Virus record (IMG/VR): IMGVR_UViG_2778261448_000005 | Source of the DNA: a virus | Taxonomy: Duplodnaviria > Heunggongvirae > Uroviricota > Caudoviricetes | Length of the DNA stretch: 36,585 nucleotides | Strand: one strand, 5' to 3' | Notes under the pieces: model-generated | The model's input: the letters and a program-made list of their open reading frames with translations, nothing else | Told to the model about the DNA's origin: nothing | Databases searched by the model: none | Program-made: the position numbers and the translations under genes | Shown here: in pieces, positions 8,049 to 35,321 of the stretch | Numbering within the stretch: the first letter of the stretch is position 1 | Layout: each line of letters starts with the position of its first letter

Positions 8049-9008
8049 ATGAAAATTTGTATCGACGACGGCTCCACCAACATCAAGCTGGCATGGACTG
8101 AGAATGGCGAACGCCGCAACGCCATCAGCCCGAACAGCTTCAAGTCGGAATGGTCTGCGCCGTTCGGTGGCATGCAGCCCGCGAACTACATGCTTGATGG
8201 CGTGCGCTATGGTTTTGATCCGGTCAGCGATCGCTTTGTCCAGACGACCGACACGCAATACCAGTACAGCGATGTGAATGTAATCGCCATTCATCACGCG
8301 CTGGTCAAATCAGGCATCACGCCACAAGAGGTGGATGTGGTTGTCACCCTGCCACTGAGCGAGTATTTCGAGACAAACGCACAGCCGGACATGGCCAACA
8401 TCAACCGCAAAAAAGCGAACGTTATGCGCTCGGTGGAGTACCAGAACGGCGAAGCATTCACTATCCGTAACGTGCGGGTTATGCCTGAATCCATTCCGGC
8501 TGGCTTTAAAGCACTGGCTGACATGAGTCCGTTTGAATCCCTGCTGATTGTGGATTTAGGCGGAACCACGCTGGATGTGGCAAAGGTTCAAGGGCAACTG
8601 GCAGGTATCAGCCAGGTGTTTTGCGATCCACACGTAGGCGTTTCCCTGATGGCCGATGCCGTACTGTCGGTGATGGCCACTAACGGTATGCGCACCAGTC
8701 ACCACATCGCCAATACCATTATCGAACATCGCCATGATGAAGCCTGGCTGCGCCAGCACATCCACAATGACGCGCATTACGCCAGCCTGATGGCGGTTAT
8801 TCGTGAAAAGGAAGAAACACTGAAACAACGCGTGATCCGCGCGCTGGCGGTTTTTTCGGGTTACGGGCGGGTGATGGTTGTCGGTGGAGGGGCGGAGATT
8901 GTGGCACCCGCTATCCGCGAAGTCTGCGGAGTTAATGCGACTTTCATCGCGGACGGGGTGCCACAGTTTGCTCTGGTTAATGGGCTGTACGCAATGGACA
9001 AGGAGTAA
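8049..9008 (+). CDS. parM: ParM/StbA-family actin-like segregation ATPase
   Basis: N-terminus MKICIDDGSTNIKLAW and downstream blocks (SPNSFK, YSDVNVIAIHHAL, DLGGTTLDV, VGGGAEI) closely parallel plasmid R1 ParM as I recall it. AAGGAAA RBS. Confidence 0.85.
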   Translation: MKICIDDGSTNIKLAWTENGERRNAISPNSFKSEWSAPFGGMQPANYMLDGVRYGFDPVSDRFVQTTDTQYQYSDVNVIAIHHALVKSGITPQEVDVVVTLPLSEYFETNAQPDMANINRKKANVMRSVEYQNGEAFTIRNVRVMPESIPAGFKALADMSPFESLLIVDLGGTTLDVAKVQGQLAGISQVFCDPHVGVSLMADAVLSVMATNGMRTSHHIANTIIEHRHDEAWLRQHIHNDAHYASLMAVIREKEETLKQRVIRALAVFSGYGRVMVVGGGAEIVAPAIREVCGVNATFIADGVPQFALVNGLYAMDKE

Positions 9009-9012
9009 ACCA

Positions 9013-9327
9013 ATGACGACACCAACCAGACGGATAAGTTTCTATCTGAAGCCCGCCGCCGTCAAGAGTGAACAGGAGGCGTGCAATTACCTCGATAGCC
9101 TACCAGCCTCCGAACGCAGCCGCGCGCAACGCGCGGCCTTTCTGGCTGGGCTAGCGCTCATAAAGCGCAACCCAGCATTTGCCTACTGGATGGCCGAATG
9201 GCCAGAGGACAACCTCCCCTTCAATACCGTTAGCATCAAGGAAACATACCAGGATAATCAGCCTAGCGGAGTTGAATGCAATTTTTATAGAATAAAAAAG
9301 AATATTCAGACCTTATTCCCAGAATAA
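9013..9327 (+). CDS. parR: ParR-like centromere-binding adaptor
   Basis: 104 aa immediately downstream of parM. N-terminal segment (RRISFYLKP ... LDSLPASERSRAQRAAFLAGLAL) resembles R1 ParR. GGAG RBS 7 nt upstream. Confidence 0.7.
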   Translation: MTTPTRRISFYLKPAAVKSEQEACNYLDSLPASERSRAQRAAFLAGLALIKRNPAFAYWMAEWPEDNLPFNTVSIKETYQDNQPSGVECNFYRIKKNIQTLFPE

Positions 9328-9375
9328 TCTGATAATTGTATGTGAACTAATAAAATACAGACCAACACATCATTC

Positions 9376-9400
9376 TGGCACCCTTGCTAACAGGGTGCCA
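9376..9400. terminator. hairpin between convergent parR and the membrane-protein operon
   Basis: TGGCACCC-loop-GGGTGCCA stem-loop in the convergent intergenic gap. Confidence 0.45.
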
Positions 9401-9410
9401 ATGTTTCAAA

Positions 9411-10253
9411 TCATGATGAAATTGCCGAAGTTTTTTTATCGTGCTGAAGTACCGCAAATGCCATTAAAACCTCAAGAGAATAGCGGCGATAATACTTAAC
9501 AAAACCATAATAAAATACTCGGGATGCAGCAATACAAAACAAGAGAAGAAAACAAAAAGGTAACAGTCTGATATTTATATCTATTAAAAAGGATAGAAGG
9601 AGCAGGAACATAAGCAACCAGACTGAAGCGAGAAAAACAAATGTAATGTTTCTACAAAAACCATACAAAGCAACATAGTTTTGCATTTTCACCTGATGAT
9701 TTTTAGAATGTTCATACACATAATGATAAGCAAGGCGAAAAAGATCGCCCCTCAAGCCCTTACGTCGATATAGCGTAGATACAGAAAAAACATTTATATA
9801 ACCATCTCGTATTTGCGGCCAAAAGACTTTAATAAGTATAGAATGCAGTGTGGTTTTATGATGTTCTGCTTTATCAAAAGCTGATACAGGAAATAAAAAA
9901 ACTCCACGAATAAAATTAACTATACTGAACTTAGTATTATGTCGTTTTATTTTCAGGGAGCTTCTTTTAGAAAACAGATAAATTGAAGGATACCCAAGTT
10001 TACTGTTCATGTATTTTTCAATTAAACAGGATGATAGAATAGATATGAAGTGACCTGAAATATATGATAGAACGATTAATGCCACATATATAAATACACT
10101 TATTATTTCTTTATATTTCAGGATATGGTTAAGAATACCTTCTATATAAACAGGGTTAATTTCAATAGAAAACAAAAAAAGGATAAACAGGAATAACCCA
10201 CCTGGAATTAGATAGCCCAAAAAGTCATAAAATGAAAACGGATTCTGTGTCAC
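9411..10253 (-). CDS. multi-pass membrane protein of unknown family, AT-rich cargo
   Basis: 280 aa, GTG start preceded by GGGGGAAG. Hydrophobic helices at both ends (about 4-5 TM). Visibly lower GC than the phage backbone. Confidence 0.6.
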   Translation of the reverse strand: MTQNPFSFYDFLGYLIPGGLFLFILFLFSIEINPVYIEGILNHILKYKEIISVFIYVALIVLSYISGHFISILSSCLIEKYMNSKLGYPSIYLFSKRSSLKIKRHNTKFSIVNFIRGVFLFPVSAFDKAEHHKTTLHSILIKVFWPQIRDGYINVFSVSTLYRRKGLRGDLFRLAYHYVYEHSKNHQVKMQNYVALYGFCRNITFVFLASVWLLMFLLLLSFLIDINIRLLPFCFLLLFCIAASRVFYYGFVKYYRRYSLEVLMAFAVLQHDKKTSAISS

Positions 10254-10292
10254 ACTTCCCCCTGTGTTACTTGTAAATTAAAGGGTAAAACA

Positions 10293-10790
10293 TTATTTGT
10301 TTTTCCGTAAAGGATTAGCTTTCCATCTTCTTACTAACCATTCGAATTCTTGATATGTAGTATCCGAATTAATGCTTTCTCTGATTGCTTTAATTAATGG
10401 CTCGGCAATATCATATGTCTCTACAACTGTTGTGTAAGATGTTCTTTTTATCATTTTTTCATCATAAATACCTTCACGAATACTTACAGCAACTCGCTCG
10501 TAAAAATTTAAAATATATTGAAATTTTCGACGCTCGGCCATTTCTTCATCTGTTATTATGCAACCATCACAAGGAAAAACATAAGAACGAAATGATTTGC
10601 CTGAACGATGCACTTGTTTCAGGGTATGCAATGACTCTATATATTGCATATCTTGCCGACTCTCAAAAAGAAAGTTGGCCGTTTGAGTTTTTTTTGCGGT
10701 ACGCACATTGTAGATAATGGTTCCAATGGCAACCAAAACGCCAAGCAGAACAATAGCATTGCTGATGATTTGTAGTGTTATTGGGTTCAT
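10293..10790 (-). CDS. single-pass membrane protein of unknown family with CDGC motif, AT-rich cargo
   Basis: 165 aa, N-terminal TM helix (ISNAIVLLGVLVAIGTIIY), then a soluble domain. First gene of a two-gene minus-strand operon with 9411-10253. Confidence 0.6.
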   Translation of the reverse strand: MNPITLQIISNAIVLLGVLVAIGTIIYNVRTAKKTQTANFLFESRQDMQYIESLHTLKQVHRSGKSFRSYVFPCDGCIITDEEMAERRKFQYILNFYERVAVSIREGIYDEKMIKRTSYTTVVETYDIAEPLIKAIRESINSDTTYQEFEWLVRRWKANPLRKNK

Positions 10791-10804
10791 CCTATTTCAT
10801 CCAT

Positions 10805-10831: not shown

Positions 10832-11438
10832 TCATTAGAGGTCAACGTAGCTTAGAAACCATCAAATTCATCATACATTTTTTTCATATCAACCCCCTCA
10901 TAGAAATCATAACCACGTTTTGTGGTTTTTGTGACGTATAAACTACATCAAAGGCAAGCCACGGTCAAATATATAGGCATGCTTACCTGCACAAAAGTGC
11001 ACAAATTTGCACAATTTTTTTGAACGACTTTTTACCCTTCCGGCCCGCATGGCGGCTGGATCCGTCAAGGATCCGTGCGTGCACAAAAAAACGCGCTTTT
11101 TCTGCGCGCAGGTGACGGGGGAACAGCCCGCGTTTCAGGGGGTAAATAGCATTCCCTGAACGATGTCGCAGAGATACAACAGAATGGCTGTATTTCTCAC
11201 GCTGAGCGTGAAAAAGACGTGAGGGCTTTTGATTTGATGAGGTGAAAGGTAAGGCCGTCAAAATCGCACTGAGACGGCGAGAACATGCAGTCAACGCGGT
11301 GGGATTGCGTAAGAGTCTGACTGTCGATGATGGCAATCAGCAGGAAAGCGTCGTGAAATTATCTGACTGATACAGGAGCTGGAGAGTCGGGGCATAAATT
11401 TTTTATGCCCCGGCGAAGCAGCAGACAAGCGAAGCGCG

Positions 11439-22648: not shown

Positions 22649-24991
22649 ATGAGTACCACAACACGAAAATTTAAAACCGTTATCACCGATACGGGTGCAA
22701 AAAAATTAGCTCAGGCAGCCGCGCCAGATGGTAAGCCTGTCCGCCTGACTCATATGGCCGTGGGCGACGGTGGCGGCACGTTGCCCACACCAGACAGCAA
22801 GCAGACCCGTCTGGTGCATGAGGTGTGGCGACACACTGTTAATCGCGTCATCCTGGACGCAACACATCAGAACCGCATTATTGCGGAGCTGGTTATTCCT
22901 CCAGAAACGGGCGGATTCTGGATCCGGGAAATTGGTGTGTTTGATGAGCACGGCGATTTAATCGCGGTGGGCAATACTGCCGAAAGTTACAAGCCAGCCG
23001 TTGCCGAAGGGTCCGGTCGTGCACAAACATTTCGCACCATTCTGACCGTATCCAGCACTGCCACTGTGGCGCTTACCGTGGATAACACCATGGTGATGGC
23101 CACAGTGGATTACGTGGATAACAAACTGAAAGAGCATGAACAGTCACGACGTCACCCGGATGCCTCGCTGACCGCAAAAGGCTTTGTTCAACTCAGTAGC
23201 GCCACTAACAGCGATTCTGAAACGCTGGCTGCAACGCCGAAAGCGGTTAAGGTCGCGTATGATCTTGCTAACGGAAAATATACAGCGCAGGATGCCACAA
23301 CAGCGCGAAAAGGCCTTGTCCAGCTTAGTAGTGCAACCAACAGCACATCTGAAACGCTTGCCGCGACACCGAAGGCAGTTAAAGCAGCGAATGACAATGC
23401 GAATGGCAGGGTACCATCTAACCGAAAAGTTAACGGGAAAGCACTGACTGCGGATATAACATTAACACCGAAAGATATTGGCACTTTAAATTCAGTAACG
23501 ATCTCTTTCTCTGGCGGGGCAGGGTGGTTCAAACTGGCAACGGTTACCATGCCACAAGCGAGTTCCATCGTTTACATCGCATTGATTGGTGGCACTGGTT
23601 ACAACGTCGGCTCCCCACAGCAGGCAGGCATTTCAGAACTGGTTCTACGAGCAGGCAATGGAAACCCCAAAGGGATTACCGGAGCTTTGTGGAAGCGTAC
23701 AGCCGTCGGATTAACGAATTTCGCCTGGATCAACACATCCGGCGATACATATGATATTTACGTTGAGATTGGCAATTATGCGACGAGTGTAAATATCCAT
23801 TGGGATTGTACTACAAATGCGTCAGTTTCTATTTATACCTCGCCAACATATTCAGCGAGTAAGCCTTCCAGCGTTACCGGTGGTGTTGTTTATACGATGT
23901 ATAGCTCACATCAGAAACCTACACCATCAGATATTGGAGCGCTGCCAACGACTGGAGGGACTATTTCAGGTCCGTTGTCTGTTACTGATGGGATCACCGG
24001 GGCACTGAAGGGGAACGCCGATACCGCGACGAAACTTGCGGCAGCCCCAAAAATTAACGGTGTTAAGTTTGATGGCTCGGCGGATATTAACCTCACGCCG
24101 GAAAATATTGGTGCATTTGCCCGACGTTCGACGGGGGCTTATGCGGATTCGAATGGAGCCGTTCCCTGGAATGCCGAATCAGGCGCTTATAATGTCACCC
24201 GCTCTGGCGACAGCTATATTCTGGTTAACTTCTATACCGGAGTCGGAAGTTGCCGGACCTTGCAGATGAAGGCGCATTACAGAAATGGTGGTCTGTTCTA
24301 CCGTTCTTCAAGAGACGGTTATGGTTTTGAGGAAGACTGGGCAGAAGTTTATACCTCGAAAAATCTTCCACCAGAAAGCTACCCAGTCGGCGCACCAATC
24401 CCGTGGCCATCAGATACCGTTCCGTCTGGTTATGCCCTGATGCAGGGGCAGACTTTTGACAAATCTGCATACCCGAAACTTGCAGTCGCTTATCCGTCAG
24501 GCGTGATCCCTGATATGCGTGGCTGGACTATCAAGGGCAAACCTGCCAGTGGTCGTGCCGTATTGTCTCAGGAACAGGACGGCATTAAATCGCACACCCA
24601 CAGCGCCAGCGCATCCAGTACTGATTTGGGGACGAAAACCACATCGTCGTTTGATTACGGTACTAAAACGACCAGTTCATTTGATTACGGCACAAAAACC
24701 ACAAATAGCGCAGGAGCTCATTCACACAATATACCTGTTGGTCACACTGGCGCGGGGAATGGTGTATCAGCCGGTTATAACGCTGCGTTAGGTACTGGTA
24801 CCACGTCGAGCGCAGGAGGGCATGCTCACAATGTATATATCGGTGCCCATAACCACACTATCGGCATTGGTGCTCATGCCCATTCTGTCATTATTGGTCC
24901 CCACGGACACACCATCACCGTTAATGCTACGGGGAACGCAGAAAACACCGTAAAAAACATCGCATTTAACTATATTGTGAGGCTTGCATAA
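22649..24991 (+). CDS. H: tail fibre protein H
   Basis: 780 aa. Conserved P2-H-like N-terminus, internal tail-fibre repeats ([18 protein letters not shown] twice), His-rich GxHxH C-terminal repeats. Confidence 0.85.
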
Positions 24992-25569
24992 TGACATTCA
25001 GAATGAGTGAACAATCACGGACCATAAAAATTTATAATCTACTGACCGGAACCAATGAGTTTATTGGTGAAGGTGATGCATACATTCCACCTCATACAGG
25101 TCTGCCTGCAAACAGTACCGATATTGCCCCGCCAGATATTCCGGCTGGCTTCGTGGCCGTTTTCAACAGTGATGAGGCATCGTGGCATCTCGTTGAAGAC
25201 CATCGGGGTAAAACGGTTTATGACGTGGCATCAGGGGACTCGTTATTTATTTCTGAACTCGGTCCATTACCGGAAAATGTTACCTGGTTGTCGCCGTATG
25301 GAGAGTATCAGAAGTGGAACGGCACATCCTGGGTGAAAGATGCAGAAGCAGAAAAACTGTTCCGGATCCGGGAGGCGGAAGAAACAAAAAACAGCCTGAT
25401 GCAGGTAGCCAGCGAGCATATTGCGCCACTTCAGGATGCCGTAGATTTGGATATTGCAACGGAGGAAGAGGGATCGTTACTGGCTGCATGGAAGACATAC
25501 CGGGTATTGTTGAATCGTGTTAATACAGCGGTAGCAGCGGATATTGAGTGGCCAGTCGCCCCACAATAA
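24991..25569 (+). CDS. G: tail fibre assembly chaperone G
   Basis: 192 aa, start overlaps the H stop. Position and size match gpG. Confidence 0.7.
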
Positions 25570-25575
25570 AGAGAA

Positions 25576-25605
25576 AAAGCCATCGATTGAAATATAGATG
25601 GCTTT
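25576..25605. terminator. hairpin between convergent G and the acetyltransferase
   Basis: AAAGCCATC-loop-GATGGCTTT stem-loop, 9-bp stem. Confidence 0.45.
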
Positions 25606-25612
25606 ATGTACT

Positions 25613-26218
25613 CTATTTATACAATACAACACCGCTCTTTTTAGTTATATATGTGCAGTTCGATGGTATATCTTTATTTATAAAAGACATTGCACCTATT
25701 TTTACATTATCCCCAATTTTACGTGATAATCCAATGATGCAACAATTAGCTCCGATATCAACGTTACTACCAATTTTTACTCTTGAACCAGGCATGTCAC
25801 CATCTATCTGTCCAATGGTAGTATTCTGTCGTAACACCAGATTTTCACCAGCATCAACAGCAAAATGAACAACAATTCCAGCATGATGGGGAATTGTTAA
25901 CCCTTTTCCAATATTTGCTCCCAATCCTATTTCACAACCAAATTTGTTAATTATTTTACTGTTTAACTTCTTGGCTGCTTTCTTATGTAATTTATTACCA
26001 TTAATATACATTTCGTTAGCCAACCGCCACCAGAAAAGGAAATTCCTGTTACGCTGCTTTTTCTCTCTTAAAAGCCTCCAGATATCCATACGTTTCCGCC
26101 GAATTACTTCATGTTTCCAGAAGTTTTTTAAATTAGTAGAGTTCCCAAATAAAACAAAGTGAATTGCCATTAGGTAAGACAGCACGATAATCTCCTTAAT
26201 TATTATTTCAGACCACAC
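25613..26218 (-). CDS. hexapeptide-repeat (left-handed beta-helix) acetyltransferase, AT-rich cargo; start uncertain (26218 or 26170)
   Basis: Hexapeptide repeats visible (VKIGSNVDIGAN, IGDNVKIGAMSFI, IGANCCIIG). Low GC. Sits at the Z/fun position between G and the tail genes. Confidence 0.7.
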   Translation of the reverse strand: MWSEIIIKEIIVLSYLMAIHFVLFGNSTNLKNFWKHEVIRRKRMDIWRLLREKKQRNRNFLFWWRLANEMYINGNKLHKKAAKKLNSKIINKFGCEIGLGANIGKGLTIPHHAGIVVHFAVDAGENLVLRQNTTIGQIDGDMPGSRVKIGSNVDIGANCCIIGLSRKIGDNVKIGAMSFINKDIPSNCTYITKKSGVVLYK

Positions 26219-26341
26219 ATGTTATAAGGTTAAGAGATTATAAAATCCTGTTGTTTGTTATTCAAAAACAATTTTCTGAGAAGGACATACAACAGCAAGT
26301 CGCCAGTCACCTTCATCAGGAAATTGGCGACATACGTTAAA

Positions 26342-26836
26342 TCAGAGCAGCCCCTTAACTGAGCTGGCCGCGCTATTAAGGGATGATGTCACCTTATCTT
26401 TGAAGCCGGACAACATATCGCTGAACGATGAGGATTGCAGGCGCTCCCGCAAATCCTCATCACAGCGTTCAAGAGTCAGTGAAAATTCTATCTTTTTCGC
26501 CTTACCGTAGCGATCAAACTCGGAACGGGTCGTATTCGTTCCGGTCAGGACATACATGCCGTAAATCTGCCCGACGCCATCAATCAAAGGCCAAGGTCGT
26601 CCTGTATACGCCTGCGTGGTCAGCAGCGACAGCGACACTTCGCCACCTGTAATTTCAGGATAAAGCACACCAGAAAGAACGATGCGATCATCACCTGCAC
26701 CGATATACTGCCAGCTTGCTGAACGGTTAACGCGTTCATTTTTCACATGCCGCCAGCTTTTGTTTTGCTGTAACTGCTGATGCGGCAGCGTGCGCAGCTC
26801 AAAAACAAACATGCCATAGATCATCATCATGGCCAT
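26342..26836 (-). CDS. U: tail protein U, P2 gpU family
   Basis: 164 aa (P2 gpU about 159 aa). Characteristic MMM..FVF.LRT N-terminus. Downstream of the tape measure. Confidence 0.85.
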   Translation of the reverse strand: MAMMMIYGMFVFELRTLPHQQLQQNKSWRHVKNERVNRSASWQYIGAGDDRIVLSGVLYPEITGGEVSLSLLTTQAYTGRPWPLIDGVGQIYGMYVLTGTNTTRSEFDRYGKAKKIEFSLTLERCDEDLRERLQSSSFSDMLSGFKDKVTSSLNSAASSVKGLL

Positions 26837-26842
26837 GACTCC

Positions 26843-29659
26843 TCAATCTTTATCGTAAAAACTGCCACGCCCGGCACGGGCGCGCCGTTCCATTTCTGCC
26901 CTGACCATTTCACCGACCAGTTTCGCCAGTTCGCGGGGATTCTGCGTAACAACGTTATGCAGATGAACATGAATTTCACCACCAAATCCGGAGACAACAG
27001 GCTCCCGGTTACGGGAAGTTGCAGGAACTGATGCCACTGGCGATCGTATGGCCTCCGCCACCGGACGGGAGCTGGCCGCAACAACAGGGACCAGCGCCGG
27101 AGGCAGAGGAGCCGGGACTACGGGTGTGATGTTGATTGCGGAAGCAGGCTTACTGGCCTGCGCAATCTTCCGCTCCTGCCACTCCCCACGAACGGCAAGT
27201 GCGCGGGGCAGATTCTTAAAGACAATATCACCGGGGCCAATGCGTTTTTTCGTCTCATCAACCAGCTTACCTGTGTTATCAGCAATTTTGCTGAGTCTGC
27301 GTAGCGTACCGGTATTGCTGTCTGTGAGTGGTTTGTCGTCTTTGGGTTTATCACCTCCGGTGCCATTGCCATTTTCCACAGGCTTCGGCGGATTGATTTT
27401 CGCCAGGTCCCCCTGAAGCAAGGCAACCTTGTCCTGAAGAATGGCCGCACGCTGTGCGTCTTCAATTTTCTTGCGCGCCCTTTCCGCTTCATCCGGAAGG
27501 ACGCCAAGTTTTTCAAGTATCCACGCCAGCGTATCCAGTAGCATTTTTGCAGGTGTCAGAACAAGCTGTAACGCACCGCCAAGAACGTTACCGAATATCT
27601 CGCCAGCACTGGTACATTTATCCAGCGTTTCCTTACTGGACTCCATCGGTGACAGCAGCGATTTAAACCAGTTAAACACCTAGCTGATCCCGCTTCCGAT
27701 TGCGTCAAAAAAAGGGCCAAACCGTTCAAAGGTTTCGCGTAACGGAGCCAGCCGTTCCATAATCCCACTGAACACCCCTGCATAAAACGCCTTGATGGGT
27801 TCCCAGTATTTCCAGATGAGAACCGCCGCAGCCACAAACGTAGCAGCAATCAATCCGACCGGACTGAACAGCGCCCCGATAGCGCCTCCCAGTAACGAAA
27901 TGGAACCCGTCACCATTCCCCATAATGCAGGCAGAACCCTGACAACATTCAATGATCCGGTCAGGAGGGAAAAACCAAGACGCAGTTTTGCCAGTGGGCC
28001 AGCAAGCACACCAATAGCCAGCGACAACGAGCCTATGGTTGCAGTCATTGCCAGCAGAGCACCGCCTGCAACCAGTAGCTGGCGCGTCAGTGCCGGATGG
28101 GCCTGCGCCAGCGCCGTCACCTTCGATACCACCCGCGTGAGCCACTGCGTGACAGAACGCAGCGGACCGTCAATCAGATCTGCAATGCGGATGCGCAACC
28201 CTTCCCATGCACTGCCGAGTGATTTCAGATCGCCGTCAAGGTTGTTGGCCATAACCTTTGCTGTGCGTTCAGCCTCACCGCGCGCGCCTTCAAGTTCTTT
28301 TCTCAGTTTGGGTAAGGAGCCGTCACCTGCCGCATCAACGAGGGCCATAAATGATGTGAAAGCCTCTTCTCCGGCAATGTCCTTAAAGAACGATACCCGG
28401 TCAACTTCCCCGTATTTGCGGGTAGCTTTATAAAGGTCAGCCAGCACATCCTCCATCGGGCGCATTTTGCCGTTCGCGTCAGAAACAGCCACACCAAGCT
28501 CCTTCAGCGCCTCTGCTGCCGCCTTTGGCGGTGATGCCAGACGAGCCAGGCTGGCACGCATTGCCGTCCCGGCATCACTCCCTCTGATACCCATATTCGC
28601 CAACACGCCAGCCATCGCTGCGGCCTGCTCCAGCGATATTCCCAGCTTACCCGCCACCGGACCTGCATATTTCATGGTTTCGCCCAGTGCGCGAAGGTCA
28701 GTGTTGGTACGGGTAAATGCTGCGGTGAGCGTGTCGCCAACCCGGTCCATCTGGTCAGCAGAAAGGCCGAACTGCGTCAGGATATTTGAGCCAATATCCG
28801 CCGTCTCGCCGAGATCCATGCCGCCAGCCGTTGCCATGCTCAGCACGCCCGGAAGTGCAGCCTGAATGGCCTGCGGAGTGAAGCCAGCCATTGCAAGAAA
28901 TGCCTGCCCACTGGCGGCATCGCCTGCGGTGAACTGCGTTTCAGAGCCAAGTTTTAACGCCTGCTCACGCAGTGCCTTAAACTGCGGGCTGTTTTTGTCG
29001 ATTCGCGTCAGTGCCTGAACGCGGGACATCTCTTTGCCGAACCCGATCGCAGGCTGCAAAAAACGCCCGGCAGCATAGCCGCCCGCCGCTGCCGCACCAA
29101 TTGCCAGCGCACCACCTGTTTTCAGTTTTCCCGCTGTTTCCTGCGCGCGCGAATACCGCTCACGCGCCCGCGTTACACGCGCAAGCGCCTGCCGTTCGCG
29201 TTCAAGCTGGTTGTTGTACTGTTCGGTGCGTCTGATGGCCTGCTGGATGGTGTTATCGCTGCCTGTCAGGGAAATGCCGTGGCGTTTCAGCTCTCCGCCA
29301 AGCTCCCGCATTTTCTGAATTTCCCGTGTGCGCGATTCATTCAGGCGTTCAAGCCGGGTGCTTAACTGCTGCATCAGCTTTTGTTGTTTTTCGCTGAGCA
29401 CTGTACCCGTGCGTTGTAACTGATTAAGGGCGTTAAGCTGGCGTCGTGCTTTCACGATGCCAGCATCCGCTTTACTGACAGCGTCACGGGCGCGCTCAAA
29501 TGAACGCGCCTGACGCTCGAGATTTTTGATCGCCCCCTGCGTTCGCTGGATGGAGTCACCAAACTGCCCCATCAGGCGGCGGGCGTTTTCGGCAGGCCGG
29601 GTCAGCCTGTCAACGGCGCTGAAAGCGACCCGGATATCAAGAGTCTTCATTATCTGCAT
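26843..29659 (-). pseudogene. T: tail tape measure protein gpT, interrupted by a single in-frame TAG at 27680-27682
   Basis: ORFs 27680-29659 (659 aa) and 26843-27679 (278 aa) are contiguous and in the same frame across one amber codon, about 938 codons combined. Ala/Gly-rich coiled-coil-like composition typical of tape measures. Confidence 0.7.
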
Positions 29660-29903
29660 TCCCGCTGCGAAGTGCCGCCCGCTCGCGCCAGCTAACCACT
29701 TCGCCGGGCGTCATCATGAAGATTTCGGCGGGCGACCAGTTAAAAATGGCGGCAATATCCGCCACCAGATCTTCGATGTGCTCAAAGCACACCAGGGTGA
29801 TTACGCTGCCGTCTCCTGCACGCTCTTCGCGCCAGAGTCTGGCTCGCTCATAAAATTTACAGCCACAGCGCACAACTGAATAAAATCGCGTGACGACATT
29901 TTT
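29637..29903 (-). CDS. E-prime extension, minus-one frame product of the tail chaperone (E+E-prime fusion by programmed frameshift)
   Basis: The -1 frame is open from the A7 run at 29899-29905 (minus strand) to a stop at 29637 and overlaps the T start, as in P2 E/E+E-prime and lambda G/GT. Confidence 0.45.
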   Translation of the reverse strand, partial: KNVVTRFYSVVRCGCKFYERARLWREERAGDGSVITLVCFEHIEDLVADIAAIFNWSPAEIFMMTPGEVVSWRERAALRSGNADNEDS

Positions 29904-30175
29904 TTAATCATCACTTCATCCAGTCGTGGCGAGGTCACGCGAGGCAACAGCGTAAACATGGTATCCGCTTTCAGATTCAGCACATCAGACAGCGACAGAC
30001 CACGCAGGGATCCAGCCTGCTCAATAGCCCCGGTGATCTCCACATACGTGATTTTTTCGCCACCACGCTCAATTGGTCGGGTCAGTTTTACGCCACGTTC
30101 GACAGCCATATCCTCACCTGCCGTCACATCATCCGCCACGGTGTTATTCCGGGTTTCAGTATCGATGTCTTTCAT
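29801..30175 (-). CDS. E: tail assembly chaperone E, P2 gpE family
   Basis: Small ORF between the tube and tape measure genes, AAGGAGA RBS. An alternative internal start at 30109 also has an RBS. Confidence 0.7.
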   Translation of the reverse strand: MKDIDTETRNNTVADDVTAGEDMAVERGVKLTRPIERGGEKITYVEITGAIEQAGSLRGLSLSDVLNLKADTMFTLLPRVTSPRLDEVMIKKMSSRDFIQLCAVAVNFMSEPDSGAKSVQETAA

Positions 30176-30230
30176 CAGTTGTCTCCTTTTCAGTCAGAGG
30201 CGACGCACTGCGCCGCCTGCATATTACTTA

Positions 30231-30743
30231 TCAGCCAAGCCCAAGCGCGGAACGGATACGGTCAGGCACAATGTCCTTGCCGTCCTTCCGGTAGATGTGG
30301 TTCAACAGGTCGATTTCCCACAGCGGGCGATCGTTAACGCTCAGCTTGTAGTAGGTGTTTTTGACAGCGTAAGTGTGTGATGTGGCTTCGCCCTGTTTGG
30401 CTTCCCCCATATCAATTTCCGTCACACGCCCGCGCATCTCGATTTCATACAGATCGCTTTCTGCATCGGTGTAGTATTCACCCGCAAAACGCAGCAGCGT
30501 GCCGTCAATCGTGCCGCCATATTTAAGGAACAGCGCACGAACAGCTCCCCCCATGACAAAACTCGCATCAAGCGCGGAGTCGTCCAGACCGAGATCAATA
30601 CTTACCGCCCCCATCATGCCACCACCACGATAGCTGTCGGTTTTGCGCGTCAGTTTGGGCGGCGTGACGGATGTCACTTTACCCACTTCGTTTTCACCAT
30701 CCACAAACAACGTAAAAAAGCGAAGATGTTTTGGTACAGCCAT
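30231..30743 (-). CDS. FII: tail tube protein FII
   Basis: 170 aa (P2 FII about 172 aa), directly downstream of the sheath gene with a 1-nt overlap. Confidence 0.85.
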   Translation of the reverse strand: MAVPKHLRFFTLFVDGENEVGKVTSVTPPKLTRKTDSYRGGGMMGAVSIDLGLDDSALDASFVMGGAVRALFLKYGGTIDGTLLRFAGEYYTDAESDLYEIEMRGRVTEIDMGEAKQGEATSHTYAVKNTYYKLSVNDRPLWEIDLLNHIYRKDGKDIVPDRIRSALGLG

Positions 30744-31927
30744 CAGGCACCTCCCAGCACCGCAAATGCGGGACCAAAGAATTCATCAGTAAACGTCTGG
30801 TACAGCTCCATGTCTTCCAGCGGGGGAACAGGCGTATATTTGTAGCGAATACGCACACGTCCCTGACGTAAATTCGTGGTGCCGTTATCCACCACGTCAT
30901 ACCAGCACTCCGCACCAATCAGTTTCCCGGCAGTAACCAGCGAATCCAGTTTTGCCCTGATGGCGCTGATAACATCCTTCACGTTCGCAGGTGTCAGTGG
31001 ACTGTCGATGGTTTCAAACTGCGCTTCCGCAATTGAATCAGCCAGCACCTGTGCGGTTCGGGTATACACCTCAAAGATGTAGGCGTTCGTTTCCGGTGTG
31101 CGGTTGCCCCAGAAGCGGAACCCGTTGCGACGAATAATGGTCGTGATTTCTTTGTTGTTGAGGCTGTTGGCATCGCTGTCTTCGGCCTGCAACGACCAGA
31201 ACACATGCCTGGACATTCCCAGCACATTTTTAACCGGAACGTTGGACAGCGATTTGTGCCAGCCCTGCTCATGGTCAATGTACGCACGAAGGCCGCACGC
31301 ATAGGCAGGCGCGGGGAACGTTTCGTTTTTGCCACTTTTCGGGTTGTAGGCGATGAAGTCCGGCCATAAGAGCATCACCTCACGTTCGTTGAATTTCTGG
31401 CGGTAGGTAATCGCCTCAGCCATCGTGTTACAGCCGTGACATGAGGCATACACAAACGCGCGCAGTTTACCTGCAATCACGCACAGGGATTTTGTTACAG
31501 CCTCCGTGTCCAGCTCCGGCGCGGCCAGAATACGCGGACGGTATCCGATGCTTTCATCCTGCTCTGCAACAAGCAGCGCATACATCCCCGTATAGCTGCC
31601 GTCATCCTCAGAACCACCGATAACCAGTTGATCCTGCGTCTTTCCGTCTTCTTCTTTGTGTTCAGCCACGCGAACGACGATCACCTTTGTGCTCACCTGG
31701 TCTGCGATGGCCTTAAGCGCACGATAAAGCGTCCCCGTTGTCCCGCATTTTCCCAGCACGTCATTGACGCGGGTCAGCAGTGTGGGCTTATTCAGCGGGA
31801 ACAGCTTCGCGTCCGCATCATCCGCCGTTGCCACGATACCGATAACGCTGGAATCAACATCGTTAATCGCTGTTACCAGGTCGGTATTTTCCGTAACACG
31901 GGCACCATGAAAACGAGTTTCACTCAT
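30743..31927 (-). CDS. FI: contractile tail sheath protein FI
   Basis: 394 aa (P2 FI about 396 aa). N-terminal region parallels P2 FI (LNKP ... GTL ... AIADQ). Confidence 0.9.
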   Translation of the reverse strand: MSETRFHGARVTENTDLVTAINDVDSSVIGIVATADDADAKLFPLNKPTLLTRVNDVLGKCGTTGTLYRALKAIADQVSTKVIVVRVAEHKEEDGKTQDQLVIGGSEDDGSYTGMYALLVAEQDESIGYRPRILAAPELDTEAVTKSLCVIAGKLRAFVYASCHGCNTMAEAITYRQKFNEREVMLLWPDFIAYNPKSGKNETFPAPAYACGLRAYIDHEQGWHKSLSNVPVKNVLGMSRHVFWSLQAEDSDANSLNNKEITTIIRRNGFRFWGNRTPETNAYIFEVYTRTAQVLADSIAEAQFETIDSPLTPANVKDVISAIRAKLDSLVTAGKLIGAECWYDVVDNGTTNLRQGRVRIRYKYTPVPPLEDMELYQTFTDEFFGPAFAVLGGA

Positions 31928-32084
31928 AGCTTCAGCCCCTTGTATCCGTTAAATGATTCGGCAACAATCATCACCCACCACGCGCGTAATCTCACCCCTG
32001 CGCCGTTCTCCCGACCCGGCGACAACAAAAAGCAGTAACCCCCTCCGCACGCACATGCGACCATGCCGCACAGGGAGGGAACAG

Positions 32085-33194
32085 ATGACCGACACCACCA
32101 TGCAATTGCTCAGTCAGGGCACAGACCCCGTGAAAATGCCGGATTTTGATATTCTCGCGGAGGGTAAAACGCTGTCAGGCGTGGCAGAGCGCCTGATGAG
32201 CCTGTCACTGACCGACAACCGGGGATTTGAGGCGGACCAGCTCACCATCACGCTGGATGATGCGGATGGTCAGTTGCAGCTACCGCCACGGGGCGCGCGC
32301 CTGACGGTTCTCATTGGCTGGAAAGGAGAACCGCTGACAGAAAAAGGCACTTACATTGTTGATGAAATCGCTCACGAAGGACCGCCGGACAGGCTGACTG
32401 TTTCAGCCAGAAGCGCAGATTTTCGGGATGAATTTAACGTTAAACGTGAGGTGTCCTGGCATGATGTGACCGTTGAGCGTGTGGTATCCGCCATCGCTCA
32501 TCGGTATGGTCTGAAACCACAAATCAGCGAAATGCTGATGGATATCGAAATCGACCACGCCGACCAGACCGAAGAAAGCGACATGTCCTTCCTTACGCGC
32601 ATGGCGGAAATGCTGGGCGCAATCACCACGGTAAAAAGCGGCAATCTGTTATTCATCATGCCAGGTGGTGGCGTGAACGCACAGGGCCAGCCGTTGCCCT
32701 CGTTCGCCATTACACGCAGCAGCGGCGATCGCCATCAGTTCCGTATTGCTGACCGCGAGGCGTATACGGGGGTACGCGCCTACTGGCTTGATCTTAATTA
32801 CGGGGAAAAGAAAAAAGTCAGCGTGAAACGCCGCAAACCACCAAAACCCCAAAAGGAGAAAAGCAGCAGCCGTGAAGGTGATTATATGGAAGGCGCGGAA
32901 GGCAATGTGTTTGTGTTACGCAAGACCTATCAGAACGAACAGGCAGCAAGACGCGCAGCGGCGGCAAAGTGGCAGCAACTACAACGCGGAGCCGCATCAT
33001 TCTCCATCACGCTGGCGCGTGGACGTGCAGAACTCTACCCCGAAATGCATGGTACGGTAACAGGATTTAAAAGCGAGATTGATAATCAGGACTGGATCAT
33101 TGCAAAAGCCGAGCACACTATTGATAACAGCGGCTTTACCACGCAGCTTGAGCTTGAGGCAAAAATCCCGGAATGGATAGCGGAAACAGAGTGA
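32085..33194 (+). CDS. D: tail protein D (late control D family); start uncertain
   Basis: ORF-track frame 31953-33194, likely start at the internal Met (MTDTTMQ) near 32085. About 369 aa versus P2 gpD 387 aa. Directly upstream of ogr. Confidence 0.8.
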   Translation: MTDTTMQLLSQGTDPVKMPDFDILAEGKTLSGVAERLMSLSLTDNRGFEADQLTITLDDADGQLQLPPRGARLTVLIGWKGEPLTEKGTYIVDEIAHEGPPDRLTVSARSADFRDEFNVKREVSWHDVTVERVVSAIAHRYGLKPQISEMLMDIEIDHADQTEESDMSFLTRMAEMLGAITTVKSGNLLFIMPGGGVNAQGQPLPSFAITRSSGDRHQFRIADREAYTGVRAYWLDLNYGEKKKVSVKRRKPPKPQKEKSSSREGDYMEGAEGNVFVLRKTYQNEQAARRAAAAKWQQLQRGAASFSITLARGRAELYPEMHGTVTGFKSEIDNQDWIIAKAEHTIDNSGFTTQLELEAKIPEWIAETE

Positions 33195-33687: not shown

Positions 33688-33828
33688 ATGTCGCAAAAAT
33701 CGCTTACGGCCATCACGTTCTGCGTGACGGTAATCCTCATCATCTGGATGCTGCACGGTTCGCTGTGTGAAATACGGATGAGCTTCTGGGGAGCGGAGTT
33801 TGCGGCGTTCTTACAGTGTAAGCAGTAA
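33688..33828 (+). CDS. Hok/Gef-family type I toxin, 46 aa
   Basis: Not in the ORF track (under 60 aa). Translation MSQKSLTAITFCVTVILIIWMLHGSLCEIRMSFWGAEFAAFLQCKQ: N-terminal TM helix plus the conserved SLCEIR and AAF blocks. AAGGAG RBS upstream. Confidence 0.55.
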   Translation: MSQKSLTAITFCVTVILIIWMLHGSLCEIRMSFWGAEFAAFLQCKQ

Positions 33829-33837
33829 GGAAACCGC

Positions 33838-33859
33838 GACGGGGGAGTAATCCCCCGTC
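33838..33859 (+). terminator. stable GC-rich hairpin at the 3-prime end of the hok-like gene
   Basis: GACGGGGG-loop-CCCCCGTC, 9-bp stem. No clear U-run, so a terminator role is uncertain. Confidence 0.35.
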
Positions 33860-34090
33860 AATCGGTTGCCAGGGTAAGGTCGATAAGGCACCCTATCTCA
33901 CAGCTCTAAATGCCAAAATTCCATGAAACTGTGGGATTTTTGCATCACATACTGATACAGACCAGCCCTTCTATATGCCTCACTCTATACCAGCTAATCA
34001 ATTGACACTTATCAATAAAAATAAATCTGATAAAATCAAAATGTTTTGTAACAAATATCAACTCGTATTAATCCAAAGGAGGCGGATTAC

Positions 34091-34423
34091 ATGGCATTAA
34101 TCAAATGTCCTGAATGCCAGAAAGAGGTGAGCGATTCAGCATTGTATTGCCCTGCTTGTGGTAAACAACTGCAAAAACTTAAGCGTTCATTTTTTGGACG
34201 GATCATTAAGTGGGTTTTTATATTATTTAATATTTTTATGATCTATACGCTTTTAGTTGGACTAGGAGGCACTAGTGAAATAATAAATAATGCCACATCC
34301 GATGCCGAAAAAGCCGGTGCAGTTATTGGTACAGGCTTAGGTTTAATTACCATTGGAAGCTTATGGGTTATTGGCGATATCATTATCGGAATTTTAGTAT
34401 TTCTTACTAAACCAAAGGGATAA
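34091..34423 (+). CDS. zinc-ribbon membrane protein, AT-rich cargo
   Basis: N-terminal CPECQ ... CPACG zinc ribbon followed by two hydrophobic helices. GGAGG RBS. Low GC. Confidence 0.5.
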   Translation: MALIKCPECQKEVSDSALYCPACGKQLQKLKRSFFGRIIKWVFILFNIFMIYTLLVGLGGTSEIINNATSDAEKAGAVIGTGLGLITIGSLWVIGDIIIGILVFLTKPKG

Positions 34424-34427
34424 TAAA

Positions 34428-35321
34428 ATGAAAAATATAATTTTTTCTATAGGTGCATCATTTATATCAATTAGTGTACTGCCTGTTCAAGCAGCAACTG
34501 AACATAAGAACTTCAATGCAGTACTCCAGTGCCGAGCAATAGAAAATAATAAAGACAGACTTTCTTGTTACGATAAGTCAATACAACCGACTCGAACGAA
34601 AGTTGCTGAAAAATTCGAAAGCAGAGATCAATGCCCTGATGAGAAAGATGATGATAGACGTTTATCTTGTTATGATCGTTTCTTTTCTCCAACATTTACT
34701 CCATCTGTAAACTCAAAATCTAAAACGGAAAAGCCAGTAACAACAGAGGCTCAGCAACCAAATCTTTCTGAGATATCTAAATGTCGTGCAGAAAATGATA
34801 AAGAAGCCAGACTAAACTGCTACGATAAACTATTCCCACAGGATAAAATCGCTCAAGCTGAATCAAAATTAGAGAAAGCCACAGATGTAGGAAAATGGCA
34901 CACATCCATTACTACATCGCCAATTGATGATTCGAAAAATGTAATTTTATCGTTAGAAAGTGATGATTATATCAGAACTCCATTTGGAGAAGCGGTTACT
35001 CCTACTCTTTTTATAGCTTGCCGAGAAAAGAAAACCGAAGTATTTCTTAGTTGGGATGTATATTTAGGCCTTGAACAAACCAGCATGCTTTATCGCCTTG
35101 ATAAACAGAAAGCAGTTGAGCGAAACTGGCTAGTATCTACAGATACAAAGGCTGTTTTTTATAAAGGTAATGACATTGATTTCATCCGAAAACTAGCCAA
35201 CTCAAGCAAAATGTATACAAAAATAACGCCTTATAATGAGAGCCCCGTAAGTGCAACTTTCAATTTAAACGGCCTGTCAAACGCGCTAAAACCGCTTCAA
35301 GCTGCTTGTAACTGGAAATAG
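34428..35321 (+). CDS. secreted protein with three Cys-x(n)-RLSCYD repeats, AT-rich cargo
   Basis: Signal peptide (MKNIIFSIGASFISISVLPVQA). Three repeats (CRAIENNKDRLSCYDK, CPDEKDDDRRLSCYDR, CRAENDKEARLNCYDK), then a roughly 150-aa C-terminal domain. Low GC. Confidence 0.5.
   Translation: MKNIIFSIGASFISISVLPVQAATEHKNFNAVLQCRAIENNKDRLSCYDKSIQPTRTKVAEKFESRDQCPDEKDDDRRLSCYDRFFSPTFTPSVNSKSKTEKPVTTEAQQPNLSEISKCRAENDKEARLNCYDKLFPQDKIAQAESKLEKATDVGKWHTSITTSPIDDSKNVILSLESDDYIRTPFGEAVTPTLFIACREKKTEVFLSWDVYLGLEQTSMLYRLDKQKAVERNWLVSTDTKAVFYKGNDIDFIRKLANSSKMYTKITPYNESPVSATFNLNGLSNALKPLQAACNWK

Follow-up and report, generated by a model that had tools for sequence, protein, structure and literature searches.

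A single AT-rich gene next to the tail-fibre genes of a P2-like Escherichia coli prophage is predicted, from its sequence and a structure model, to encode an O-acetyltransferase of the CysE/WcaB branch that is catalytically competent and uses acetyl-CoA. Comparisons of DNA sequence showed its co-transfer with the fibre tip and the tail-fibre assembly gene (tfa) among P2-like, P1-like and Stf-type-fibre phages, and they tie the gene to the 3' end of tfa rather than to the P2 Z/fun slot itself. With a probability of about one half, the gene is a moron expressed in the lysogen, whose product would O-acetylate an envelope-glycan precursor at the cytoplasmic face. In kind it would be an ordinary prophage moron. 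What sets it apart is how prevalent it is, that RefSeq probably misnames it, and that it suggests a testable idea, namely a receptor-binding module travelling together with a surface-editing enzyme.

Prophage setting and anatomy of the gene unit

The window, i.e., the whole stretch of 36,585 nucleotides that was analysed (IMG/VR record IMGVR_UViG_2778261448_000005), represents a P2-like E. coli prophage that is 99.56% identical over 31 kb to the prophage of strain CRE1540, which adjoins flk and fabB. The features discussed below are listed in Table 1. U, the tape-measure gene T, E, FII, and FI are encoded on the minus strand and D and ogr on the plus strand, so that the tail operon is inverted relative to canonical P2. 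Because the FI-FII-E-T-U operon lies on the minus strand, the acetyltransferase gene adjoins U and occupies the G-U interval instead of bordering FI; its location between G and the tail genes had been recognised correctly in the sequence-only reading. A search for inverted repeats around the inverted FI-U tail operon found none. The tape-measure gene contains an amber codon, and the prophage may therefore be decaying.

The maximal open reading frame of the acetyltransferase gene extends from 25613 to 26218 on the minus strand and would yield 201 amino acids when begun at its GTG codon. This open reading frame, which had been taken for the gene in the sequence-only reading, does exist, but translation probably starts further downstream. 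GTG 26185, giving a protein of 190 amino acids, is a likelier start than 26218 because AAGGAG lies 6 nt upstream of it, RefSeq calls the same start (identical 573-nt CDS, WP_000954202.1), and P1-like homologues carry an ATG at the equivalent codon. The DNA homology to these P1-like homologues stops at 26177, and the AAGGAG motif is kept in three loci from non-P2 contexts (L053, L060, and L062). The in-frame extension between the two candidate starts is probably untranslated.

With a GC content of 0.347 for the CDS and 0.335 for the gene unit versus 0.517 for the window, the gene forms one of only three AT-rich islands within the window, in agreement with its earlier description as a single AT-rich cargo gene. 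It is convergent with G/tfa and separated from it by a gap of 43 nt, which contains a hairpin with an RNA fold of -16.6 kcal/mol (z = -3.3 against shuffles) that is a probable terminator common to both genes. On the upstream side, a candidate sigma-70 promoter was found by a consensus scan, which returned 5 sites in the region versus 3.7 expected by chance. Homology with the three non-P2 contexts mentioned above ends at 26267-26269, just outside the -35 hexamer; the TTGAAT and TATAAT hexamers are degraded in these loci and not conserved across lineages. P1-like loci have a different upstream region with a candidate promoter of their own (TTGACA-18-TAAAAT). Among the features that characterise morons, deviant GC content, a terminator hairpin, and presence/absence polymorphism (528 versus 4380 genomes, see below) were observed, the promoter being a consensus match alone. 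As far as can be inferred from these signals, the anatomy of the gene unit is typical of a moron with a putative promoter.

Table 1. Features of the acetyltransferase gene unit, its product, and the neighbouring tail genes (nucleotide positions refer to the window).
Feature	Position	Strand	Description
H tail fibre	22649-24991	+	Tail-collar N-terminus, fibre repeats, gp37_C domain, Collar domain
Distal tip of H	24380..24991	+	Codons ~577-780: Collar domain and His-rich tip; Pfam Collar residues 581-628
G / Tfa tail-fibre assembly gene	24991..25569	+	192 aa; Pfam Caudo_TAP 9e-40
Hairpin AAAGCCATC...GATGGCTTT then T-run	25576..25605		Between the convergent stops of tfa (25569) and acetyltransferase (25613)
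Acetyltransferase CDS	25613..26185	-	190 aa, hexapeptide-repeat (left-handed beta-helix); RefSeq WP_000954202.1
In-frame 5' extension of maximal ORF	26186..26218	-	Contains Shine-Dalgarno; RefSeq start 26185
Shine-Dalgarno AAGGAG	26192..26197	-	Read from sequence; 6 nt upstream of GTG 26185
Candidate sigma-70 promoter TTGAAT-17-TATAAT	26237..26265	-	Consensus scan, 10/12 matches
U	26342-26836	-	Tail-gene neighbour of acetyltransferase
N-terminal domain of acetyltransferase	Residues 1-82 of 190		Basic, helical
Beta-helix of acetyltransferase	Residues ~85-180 of 190		
Putative catalytic residues of acetyltransferase	H100 and E85		Aligned with CysE H158 and D143

Fold, family, and the name serine acetyltransferase

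On the basis of the structure model and profile matches, the protein is assigned to the hexapeptide-repeat left-handed beta-helix acyltransferase superfamily, as had been read from the sequence before. Nine [LIV]G motifs in residues 86-163 show the spacing of hexapeptide repeats. Pfam Hexapep matched the single sequence at 3.8e-5 and 23.6 bits, which is below the gathering score of 27, and relatives of the protein carry PF00132. Residues 24-201 of the 201-residue open reading frame matched positions 3-181 of the 185 positions of phrog_2154 (E = 2.5e-87, 292 bits), a phage family of unknown function in PHROGs. Against solved structures, the family profile retrieved serine acetyltransferases at 1e-23 as well as many beta-helix structures. 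An AlphaFold model calculated from 107 homologues (pLDDT 96) consists of five N-terminal helices followed by a beta-helix of regularly spaced short strands. It could be superimposed on serine acetyltransferases with a TM score of 0.73 that includes the N-terminal helical domain, which bears out the resemblance of this region to serine or sugar O-acetyltransferases suggested earlier. This model superseded a previous one from a 26-sequence alignment, whose beta-helix was poor (pLDDT 67). A search of a viral structure library with the model gave no informative match.

Within the family, H100 is near-invariant, position 85 is occupied by Asp or Glu, and the catalytic motif is almost invariant over the 107 sequences. 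The family is basic (median pI 9.8; net charge of +15 in the N-terminal 85 residues), the window protein having a pI of 10.2 versus 6.05 for CysE. It is also small, comprising 75 clusters (50% identity) at E<=1e-30 among 1.84 billion representatives.

The name "serine acetyltransferase" used by RefSeq is probably wrong, since the protein scores below all CysE, EpsC, and WcaB cut-offs and is devoid of the serine-binding residues, most of the N-terminal domain, and the CysK tail of the genuine enzyme. Profile searches, which the sequence-only reading had proposed for placing the protein, found it nearest to EpsC (75.6 bits against a cut-off of 150), followed by cysE (TIGR01172; 61.6 against 210.65) and WcaB (PRK10191, 54.2 against 196; TIGR04016, 53.3 against 194.65), and it reached 36.7 bits on PRK11132, whose cut-off is 397. 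As a control, E. coli CysE obtained 250, 579, and 176 bits on TIGR01172, PRK11132, and EpsC, respectively, and WcaB obtained 364 and 318 bits on its own models; the identity of the two control sequences was confirmed by the scores of 579 and 364 bits. Genuine WcaB scored 101 and 109 bits on two serine models and thus higher than the window protein, so a weak match to the serine models does not imply that serine is the substrate.

Comparison with CysE (EC 2.3.1.30) at the residue level pointed in the same direction. The two proteins share the overall fold as well as the catalytic His and acidic residue. Of the serine/cysteine-binding residues in the E. coli and H. influenzae structures of CysE (Asp92, Asp157, Arg192, and His193), however, the last three correspond to P99, S134, and R135, at alignment positions that differ among family members, and the segment that holds D92 in CysE has no counterpart. 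Most of the CysE N-terminal domain is absent, and the C-terminus (...GVVLYK) extends ten residues past the helix without the CysK-docking tail ending in Ile; C-termini are short and variable across the family. Foreign GC content and the prophage context are further differences from cysE. WcaB, the colanic-acid acetyltransferase of E. coli, is 30% identical to the window protein, versus 24% for CysE. Like the window protein, WcaB joins a short N-terminal helical part to a beta-helix and is basic in pI. The catalytic His and Glu of the two proteins coincide in the alignment, and one Arg, in the motif I-R-H/Q-x-x-T-I-G, is common to WcaB and the acetyltransferase family. The window protein nevertheless belongs to a separate small clade. 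Both a genuine CysE and a genuine WcaB were ruled out by the curated cut-offs and the residue checks with verified controls; the locus of the gene, in a prophage between tfa and U, is moreover not the wca cluster. A core metabolic identity, against which the sequence-only reading had set a check beforehand, is contradicted by these scores and residues, and the loci examined were prophages, places beside integrases or IS elements, or lone chromosomal genes, but never a cys operon.

Linkage to the tail-fibre tip and tfa

Searches with blastn revealed one contiguous block of fibre tip, tfa, and acetyltransferase gene that starts at 24380 and ends at 26177 or ~26267. Its identity is 88-98% in P1-like loci and in further fibre contexts, among them a second P2-like H type. 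The start of the block near 24380 corresponds to H codon ~577, where the Collar domain begins. In loci with a lambda-Stf-type fibre N-terminus, the tip match is interrupted or starts only at 24854 (two loci), and the block has diverged to about 70% where the gene order is that of canonical P2 (H, G, acetyltransferase in reverse, FI, FII). In the P1-like phage-plasmids JL22 and Ro157c2YLVW, tfa and the acetyltransferase gene adjoin remnants of P1 S/U-type fibre genes. The order in JL22 is stf-tfa, acetyltransferase, U'-S', cin, and the block is located between inverted repeats (6017-6121 and 11186-11290) in the region near cin.

A convergent tfa was found <=400 nt downstream of the acetyltransferase gene in 69 of 82 phage or IMG/VR loci (5 not assessable), a survey that is biased by IMG/VR being viral by construction. 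The same arrangement recurs at acetyltransferase identities of 35-44% in E. coli phage 613R2, Hafnia phage yong2, and Citrobacter phage phiNP. Acetyltransferases of 36-67% identity stand beside one tip family of 70-77% identity. Two loci, L175 (acetyltransferase 36%, Tfa 78%, and tip 70% identity) and phiNP (44, 57, and 77%, respectively), ruled out that the acetyltransferase diverges strictly in step with Tfa and the tip. Judging from these sequence identities, the partners have been reshuffled and yet remain adjacent, different acetyltransferase alleles having repeatedly arrived, or stayed, beside the same tip family. In species-representative genomes and other assemblies, distant homologues stand alone, beside an integrase in Salmonella and Proteus, close to IS elements in Pantoea, and in non-phage chromosomal settings in Orbus, Rahnella, and Pantoea. 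None of these has an adjacent tfa, nor has any of the loci L084-L107; the scan of species representatives mostly returned generic beta-helix proteins, and at least about 12 true family members were among the matches listed, none with tfa next to it.

These data bear on the earlier view of the gene as cargo at the Z/fun position. It does occupy the same slot relative to G as P2 Z/fun and is likewise AT-rich, opposite to the fibre genes, and non-essential; in the window prophage, however, the neighbouring tail operon is inverted, and the cargo is one recurrent family that is also found in P1-like and Stf-type-fibre phages. The actual linkage is with the fibre tip and tfa, and the sequence comparisons suggest that "Z/fun cargo" should be replaced by "appendage of mobile tail-fibre cassette". 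The P2 Z/fun locus itself is variable and swaps fibre and tfa genes (preprint 10.1101/2024.10.15.618418). A tfa gene of ~90% identity (like K-12 tfaQ and tfaR) was detected in 4380 of 5426 complete E. coli genomes and the acetyltransferase gene in only 528, and the homology of tfa loci without acetyltransferase stops at the tfa stop codon. Since the fibre works without the enzyme, the linkage may reflect a favoured insertion site only. The region downstream of tail-fibre genes is a known general hotspot for morons, another example being sopE in SopE-phi.

Proposed function and alternative explanations

Modification of a surface polysaccharide or masking of a receptor, a reasonable proposal of the sequence-only reading, is the best-supported guess for the function of the gene. 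Its support is indirect and consists of the glycosyltransferase family 25 and HtrL/YibB partners of distant homologues and the similarity of the protein to WcaB. The Xenorhabdus bovienii homologue shares an operon with a glycosyltransferase family 25 gene ("LPS biosynthesis protein", 1.6e-35), which lies 58 nt downstream and is read in the same direction; the two genes are flanked by a prophage integrase on one side and by tail-fibre and baseplate genes on the other. In two IMG/VR phages (L069 and L070) the homologue adjoins an HtrL/YibB gene (9e-79), a family that belongs to the LPS-core region in E. coli K-12. The window itself contains no partner glycosyltransferase or transporter gene. In the literature found, no function is assigned to the acetyltransferase, and it is called a "serine acetyltransferase" with no further explanation: according to the JL22 paper it is unknown why the gene is there, it is listed as a "fitness" gene in the C. 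rodentium prophage paper, and it is not mentioned by Rousset 2022.

According to the preferred reading, a non-essential moron of foreign, AT-rich origin would have become attached to the 3' end of an exchanged tip-Tfa cassette. Its own sigma-70-type promoter would drive transcription in the lysogen up to the hairpin common to tfa, and the product, a trimeric enzyme, would use cytoplasmic acetyl-CoA for the O-acetylation of a sugar. As acceptor, a lipid- or nucleotide-linked precursor of an envelope glycan may be envisaged (LPS core, O-antigen, enterobacterial common antigen, or colanic acid), and the strongly basic N-terminal domain might hold the enzyme at the anionic inner-membrane face. The altered surface glycan would then change binding by phages, possibly including carriers of the same tip, or by the immune system, thereby causing lysogenic conversion or receptor masking. 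Carriers of the gene belong to many O serogroups, including O157, O55, O103, O111, O26, and O22, which argues against an O-unit-specific acceptor.

The best functional analogy for the enzyme is NeuO, the polysialic-acid O-acetyltransferase of the E. coli K1 prophage CUS-3, which acts on the K1 capsule and makes its host more resistant to phages (PMC3046976, PMC13001214). Both are prophage-borne, single-gene, left-handed beta-helix O-acetyltransferases of the cytoplasm, a location that is predicted in the case of the window protein. NeuO is, however, not among the best 60 of 94 solved-structure matches to the window family, whose placement in the CysE/WcaB branch with a helical N-terminal domain is a further difference, and the window gene occurs across many serogroups and not in K1 alone. 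A heptanucleotide repeat at the 5' end makes neuO phase-variable, whereas no tandem repeat of this type was found within or before the acetyltransferase gene. Lysogen-expressed glycan modification encoded near tail or integrase genes, as proposed here for a gene near tail genes, is also known from Oac of Sf6, GtrABC of P22 and SfX, and the phiV10 O-acetylase, and such seroconversion modules block re-adsorption of the same phage. The acetylases among them are integral-membrane acyltransferase-3 proteins working on the periplasmic side, whereas the window enzyme is predicted to be a soluble, cytoplasmic beta-helix protein. Seroconversion modules of temperate phages have been reviewed (PMC12373910).

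A more specific and rather doubtful extension of the preferred reading is that tip, Tfa, and acetyltransferase form a "key plus lock-changer" cassette, in which the enzyme edits the envelope receptor, most plausibly an LPS-core sugar, of the co-transferred tip. This would explain why one tip family, in P2-like, P1-like, Stf-fibre, and phiNP-type phages, is accompanied by the divergent acetyltransferases described above. A phage gaining such a host-range module by recombination would also gain matching superinfection exclusion, and its progeny would be spared re-adsorption. Receptors reported for fibre tips of this kind include proteins such as OmpC in addition to LPS. The tight coupling to the receptor-binding module offers a concrete and cheaply testable hypothesis that would extend the tail-fibre mosaicism of the 1990s, "fibre plus chaperone", by a surface-editing enzyme.

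The gene is carried by about one tenth of the complete E. coli genomes, including many Shiga-toxin-producing serogroups. A 1-kb query (25400-26400) matched 591 of 5426 complete genomes, 510 of them over >=80% of the query, and 66 of the matching places were on plasmids; P1-like phage-plasmids that spread resistance genes are among the carriers. If LPS or another envelope glycan is indeed acetylated, the gene would commonly, and so far unnoticed, contribute to variation in phage susceptibility, in serology, and in recognition by the immune system, with relevance to the prediction of host range in phage therapy. If it is no more than a passenger of minor metabolic importance, what follows in practice is a corrected annotation.

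Among the alternatives, an unlikely one is that the enzyme acetylates a non-glycan target in the cytoplasm (a metabolite, a xenobiotic or antibiotic, a signalling molecule, or a protein) and serves host fitness, anti-phage defence, or counter-defence. It would fit the occurrence as single-gene cargo in many contexts with no constant partner, the positions of homologues behind hicAB in phiNP and behind an Abi gene in ESSI2_ev040, and the basic surface, which could bind an anionic non-glycan ligand; the slot also holds defence genes in other P2-like phages (preprint 10.1101/2024.10.15.618418). Against this reading, a PADLOC-DB v2 search gave no support for a known defence system, with no defence-protein family matching at E <= 0.1, a sensor or effector partner is lacking, and the sole suggestive partners found were the glycosyltransferase family 25 and HtrL/YibB genes. 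Furthermore, the nearest characterised relatives acetylate serine or sugars. A genuine serine O-acetyltransferase, i.e., an auxiliary metabolic gene that raises the supply of O-acetylserine and cysteine or affects the CysB regulon in the lysogen, is very improbable all the same. Although serine acetyltransferases are the top profile and structure matches, the catalytic His and acidic residue are conserved, and the name is used by RefSeq and by the JL22 and C. rodentium prophage papers, the scores lie far under all curated cut-offs and are exceeded on the same models by WcaB, which is not a serine enzyme. The replaced binding residues, the missing D92 segment and Ile-ending tail, and the difference in pI to CysE likewise speak against serine as the substrate.

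The deep and repeated adjacency to tfa and one tip family could alternatively be explained if the enzyme acetylated a component of the virion, such as the tail fibre or Tfa of the phage itself, and in the window its position downstream of U on the same strand would permit late read-through. This, too, is very unlikely. In nearly all loci the gene and the fibre operon are convergent, and at one locus of canonical P2 order (L064) the gene also diverges from the upstream FI tail operon and hence is not part of any late operon at this locus. For the most part, fibres and tfa genes of the same family occur without the acetyltransferase, some homologues have no phage nearby at all, and we know of no beta-helix acetyltransferase of the CysE/WcaB branch that acts on proteins. 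Least probable of all is an inert hitch-hiker with no current function, carried along since tip-swapping recombination uses flanking homology beyond the gene. The many tfa cassettes devoid of acetyltransferase and the possible decay of the window prophage, with its amber codon in the tape-measure gene, would be in line with such a passenger, but the near-invariant catalytic motif is not. The reading frame is intact in all assessable loci, and dN/dS between lineages amounts to 0.11-0.22 at a synonymous divergence of up to 0.7, indicating that the acetyltransferase gene is maintained by purifying selection.

Tail operon orientation and integrity

The operon of the tail genes FI, FII, E, T and U (window 26342-31927, minus strand) is inverted relative to the canonical P2 arrangement, yet gene D (31953-33194) and ogr have kept their plus orientation. 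This combination of an inverted operon with plus-strand D and ogr is common to hundreds of E. coli prophages, and the canonical tail-gene order is present in the related loci L064, L067 and L068. A search for inverted repeats of at least 14 nt flanking the 26342-31927 segment found none.

The tape-measure gene T carries an in-frame amber codon, at a position that is CAG in 27 and CTG in 2 of the related loci. The codon divides the tape-measure protein of approximately 938 aa into ORFs of 659 aa and 278 aa. This copy of the prophage may have lost the capacity for tail assembly, barring suppression of the codon or an error in sequencing.

The length called for gene D differs between the window and the closely similar prophage of E. 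coli strain CRE1540 (99.56% identity over 31 kb). In the former, 31953-33194 is an uninterrupted ORF of 413 aa that matches Phage_GPD, whereas the RefSeq annotation of CRE1540 gives D (L001 26995-27795) only 266 aa, names its product a "VgrG/Pvc8 family" protein and places a pseudogene fragment ahead of it. The mismatch may lie in the choice of start site or in the annotation.

Features of the tail region, the AT-rich islands and the tail-fibre cassette
Feature	Location	Orientation	Remarks
ParM	window 8049-9008		ParM-type partition system adjoining the 9150-10800 island
280-aa protein	window 9411-10253	minus	no domain; weak Csx27 match (1.4e-5)
DUF4760 protein	window 10293-10790	minus	1.8e-34
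Tape-measure gene	window 26843-29659	minus	in-frame TAG at 27680-27682
Hok/Gef toxin gene	within window 33688-35321
Zinc-ribbon protein	window 34091-34423		110 aa
"T6SS-associated TagO" (RefSeq name)	window 34428-35321		297 aa; directly before flk
Macro-domain gene	L006 7204-8106	late-operon orientation	PF01661, 1e-18

AT-rich islands

The AT-richest island of the window (9150-10800, G + C content as low as 0.30) is located in the gpA-gpQ (old/tin) hotspot, and its 280-aa and DUF4760 proteins may form an as yet uncharacterised pair with a defence or accessory role. A third AT-rich island (33688-35321) lies beyond ogr; PADLOC returned no match for its zinc-ribbon and "TagO" proteins.

Tail-fibre cassette and companions of the acetyltransferase

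Within the tail-fibre gene H, a 30-nt unit is tandemly repeated in 2.3 copies (window 24635-24704) and encodes repeats of a 10-residue peptide immediately ahead of the His-rich fibre tip. In many relatives, a Macro-domain protein of 269-300 aa is encoded, with the orientation of the late operon, between the fibre gene and the tail-fibre assembly gene tfa (L006, and also L008, L013, L016, L019-L023, L044, L045, L060 and L062), and this gene is a second cargo gene within the same tail-fibre cassette as the acetyltransferase. The acetyltransferase family also groups with other accessory genes, as two of its distant homologues show: in Citrobacter phage phiNP (L177 643-1835) the homologue is found immediately downstream of a hicA-hicB toxin-antitoxin pair, and in ESSI2_ev040 (L178 2416-4471) it follows an abortive-infection gene beside the integrase.
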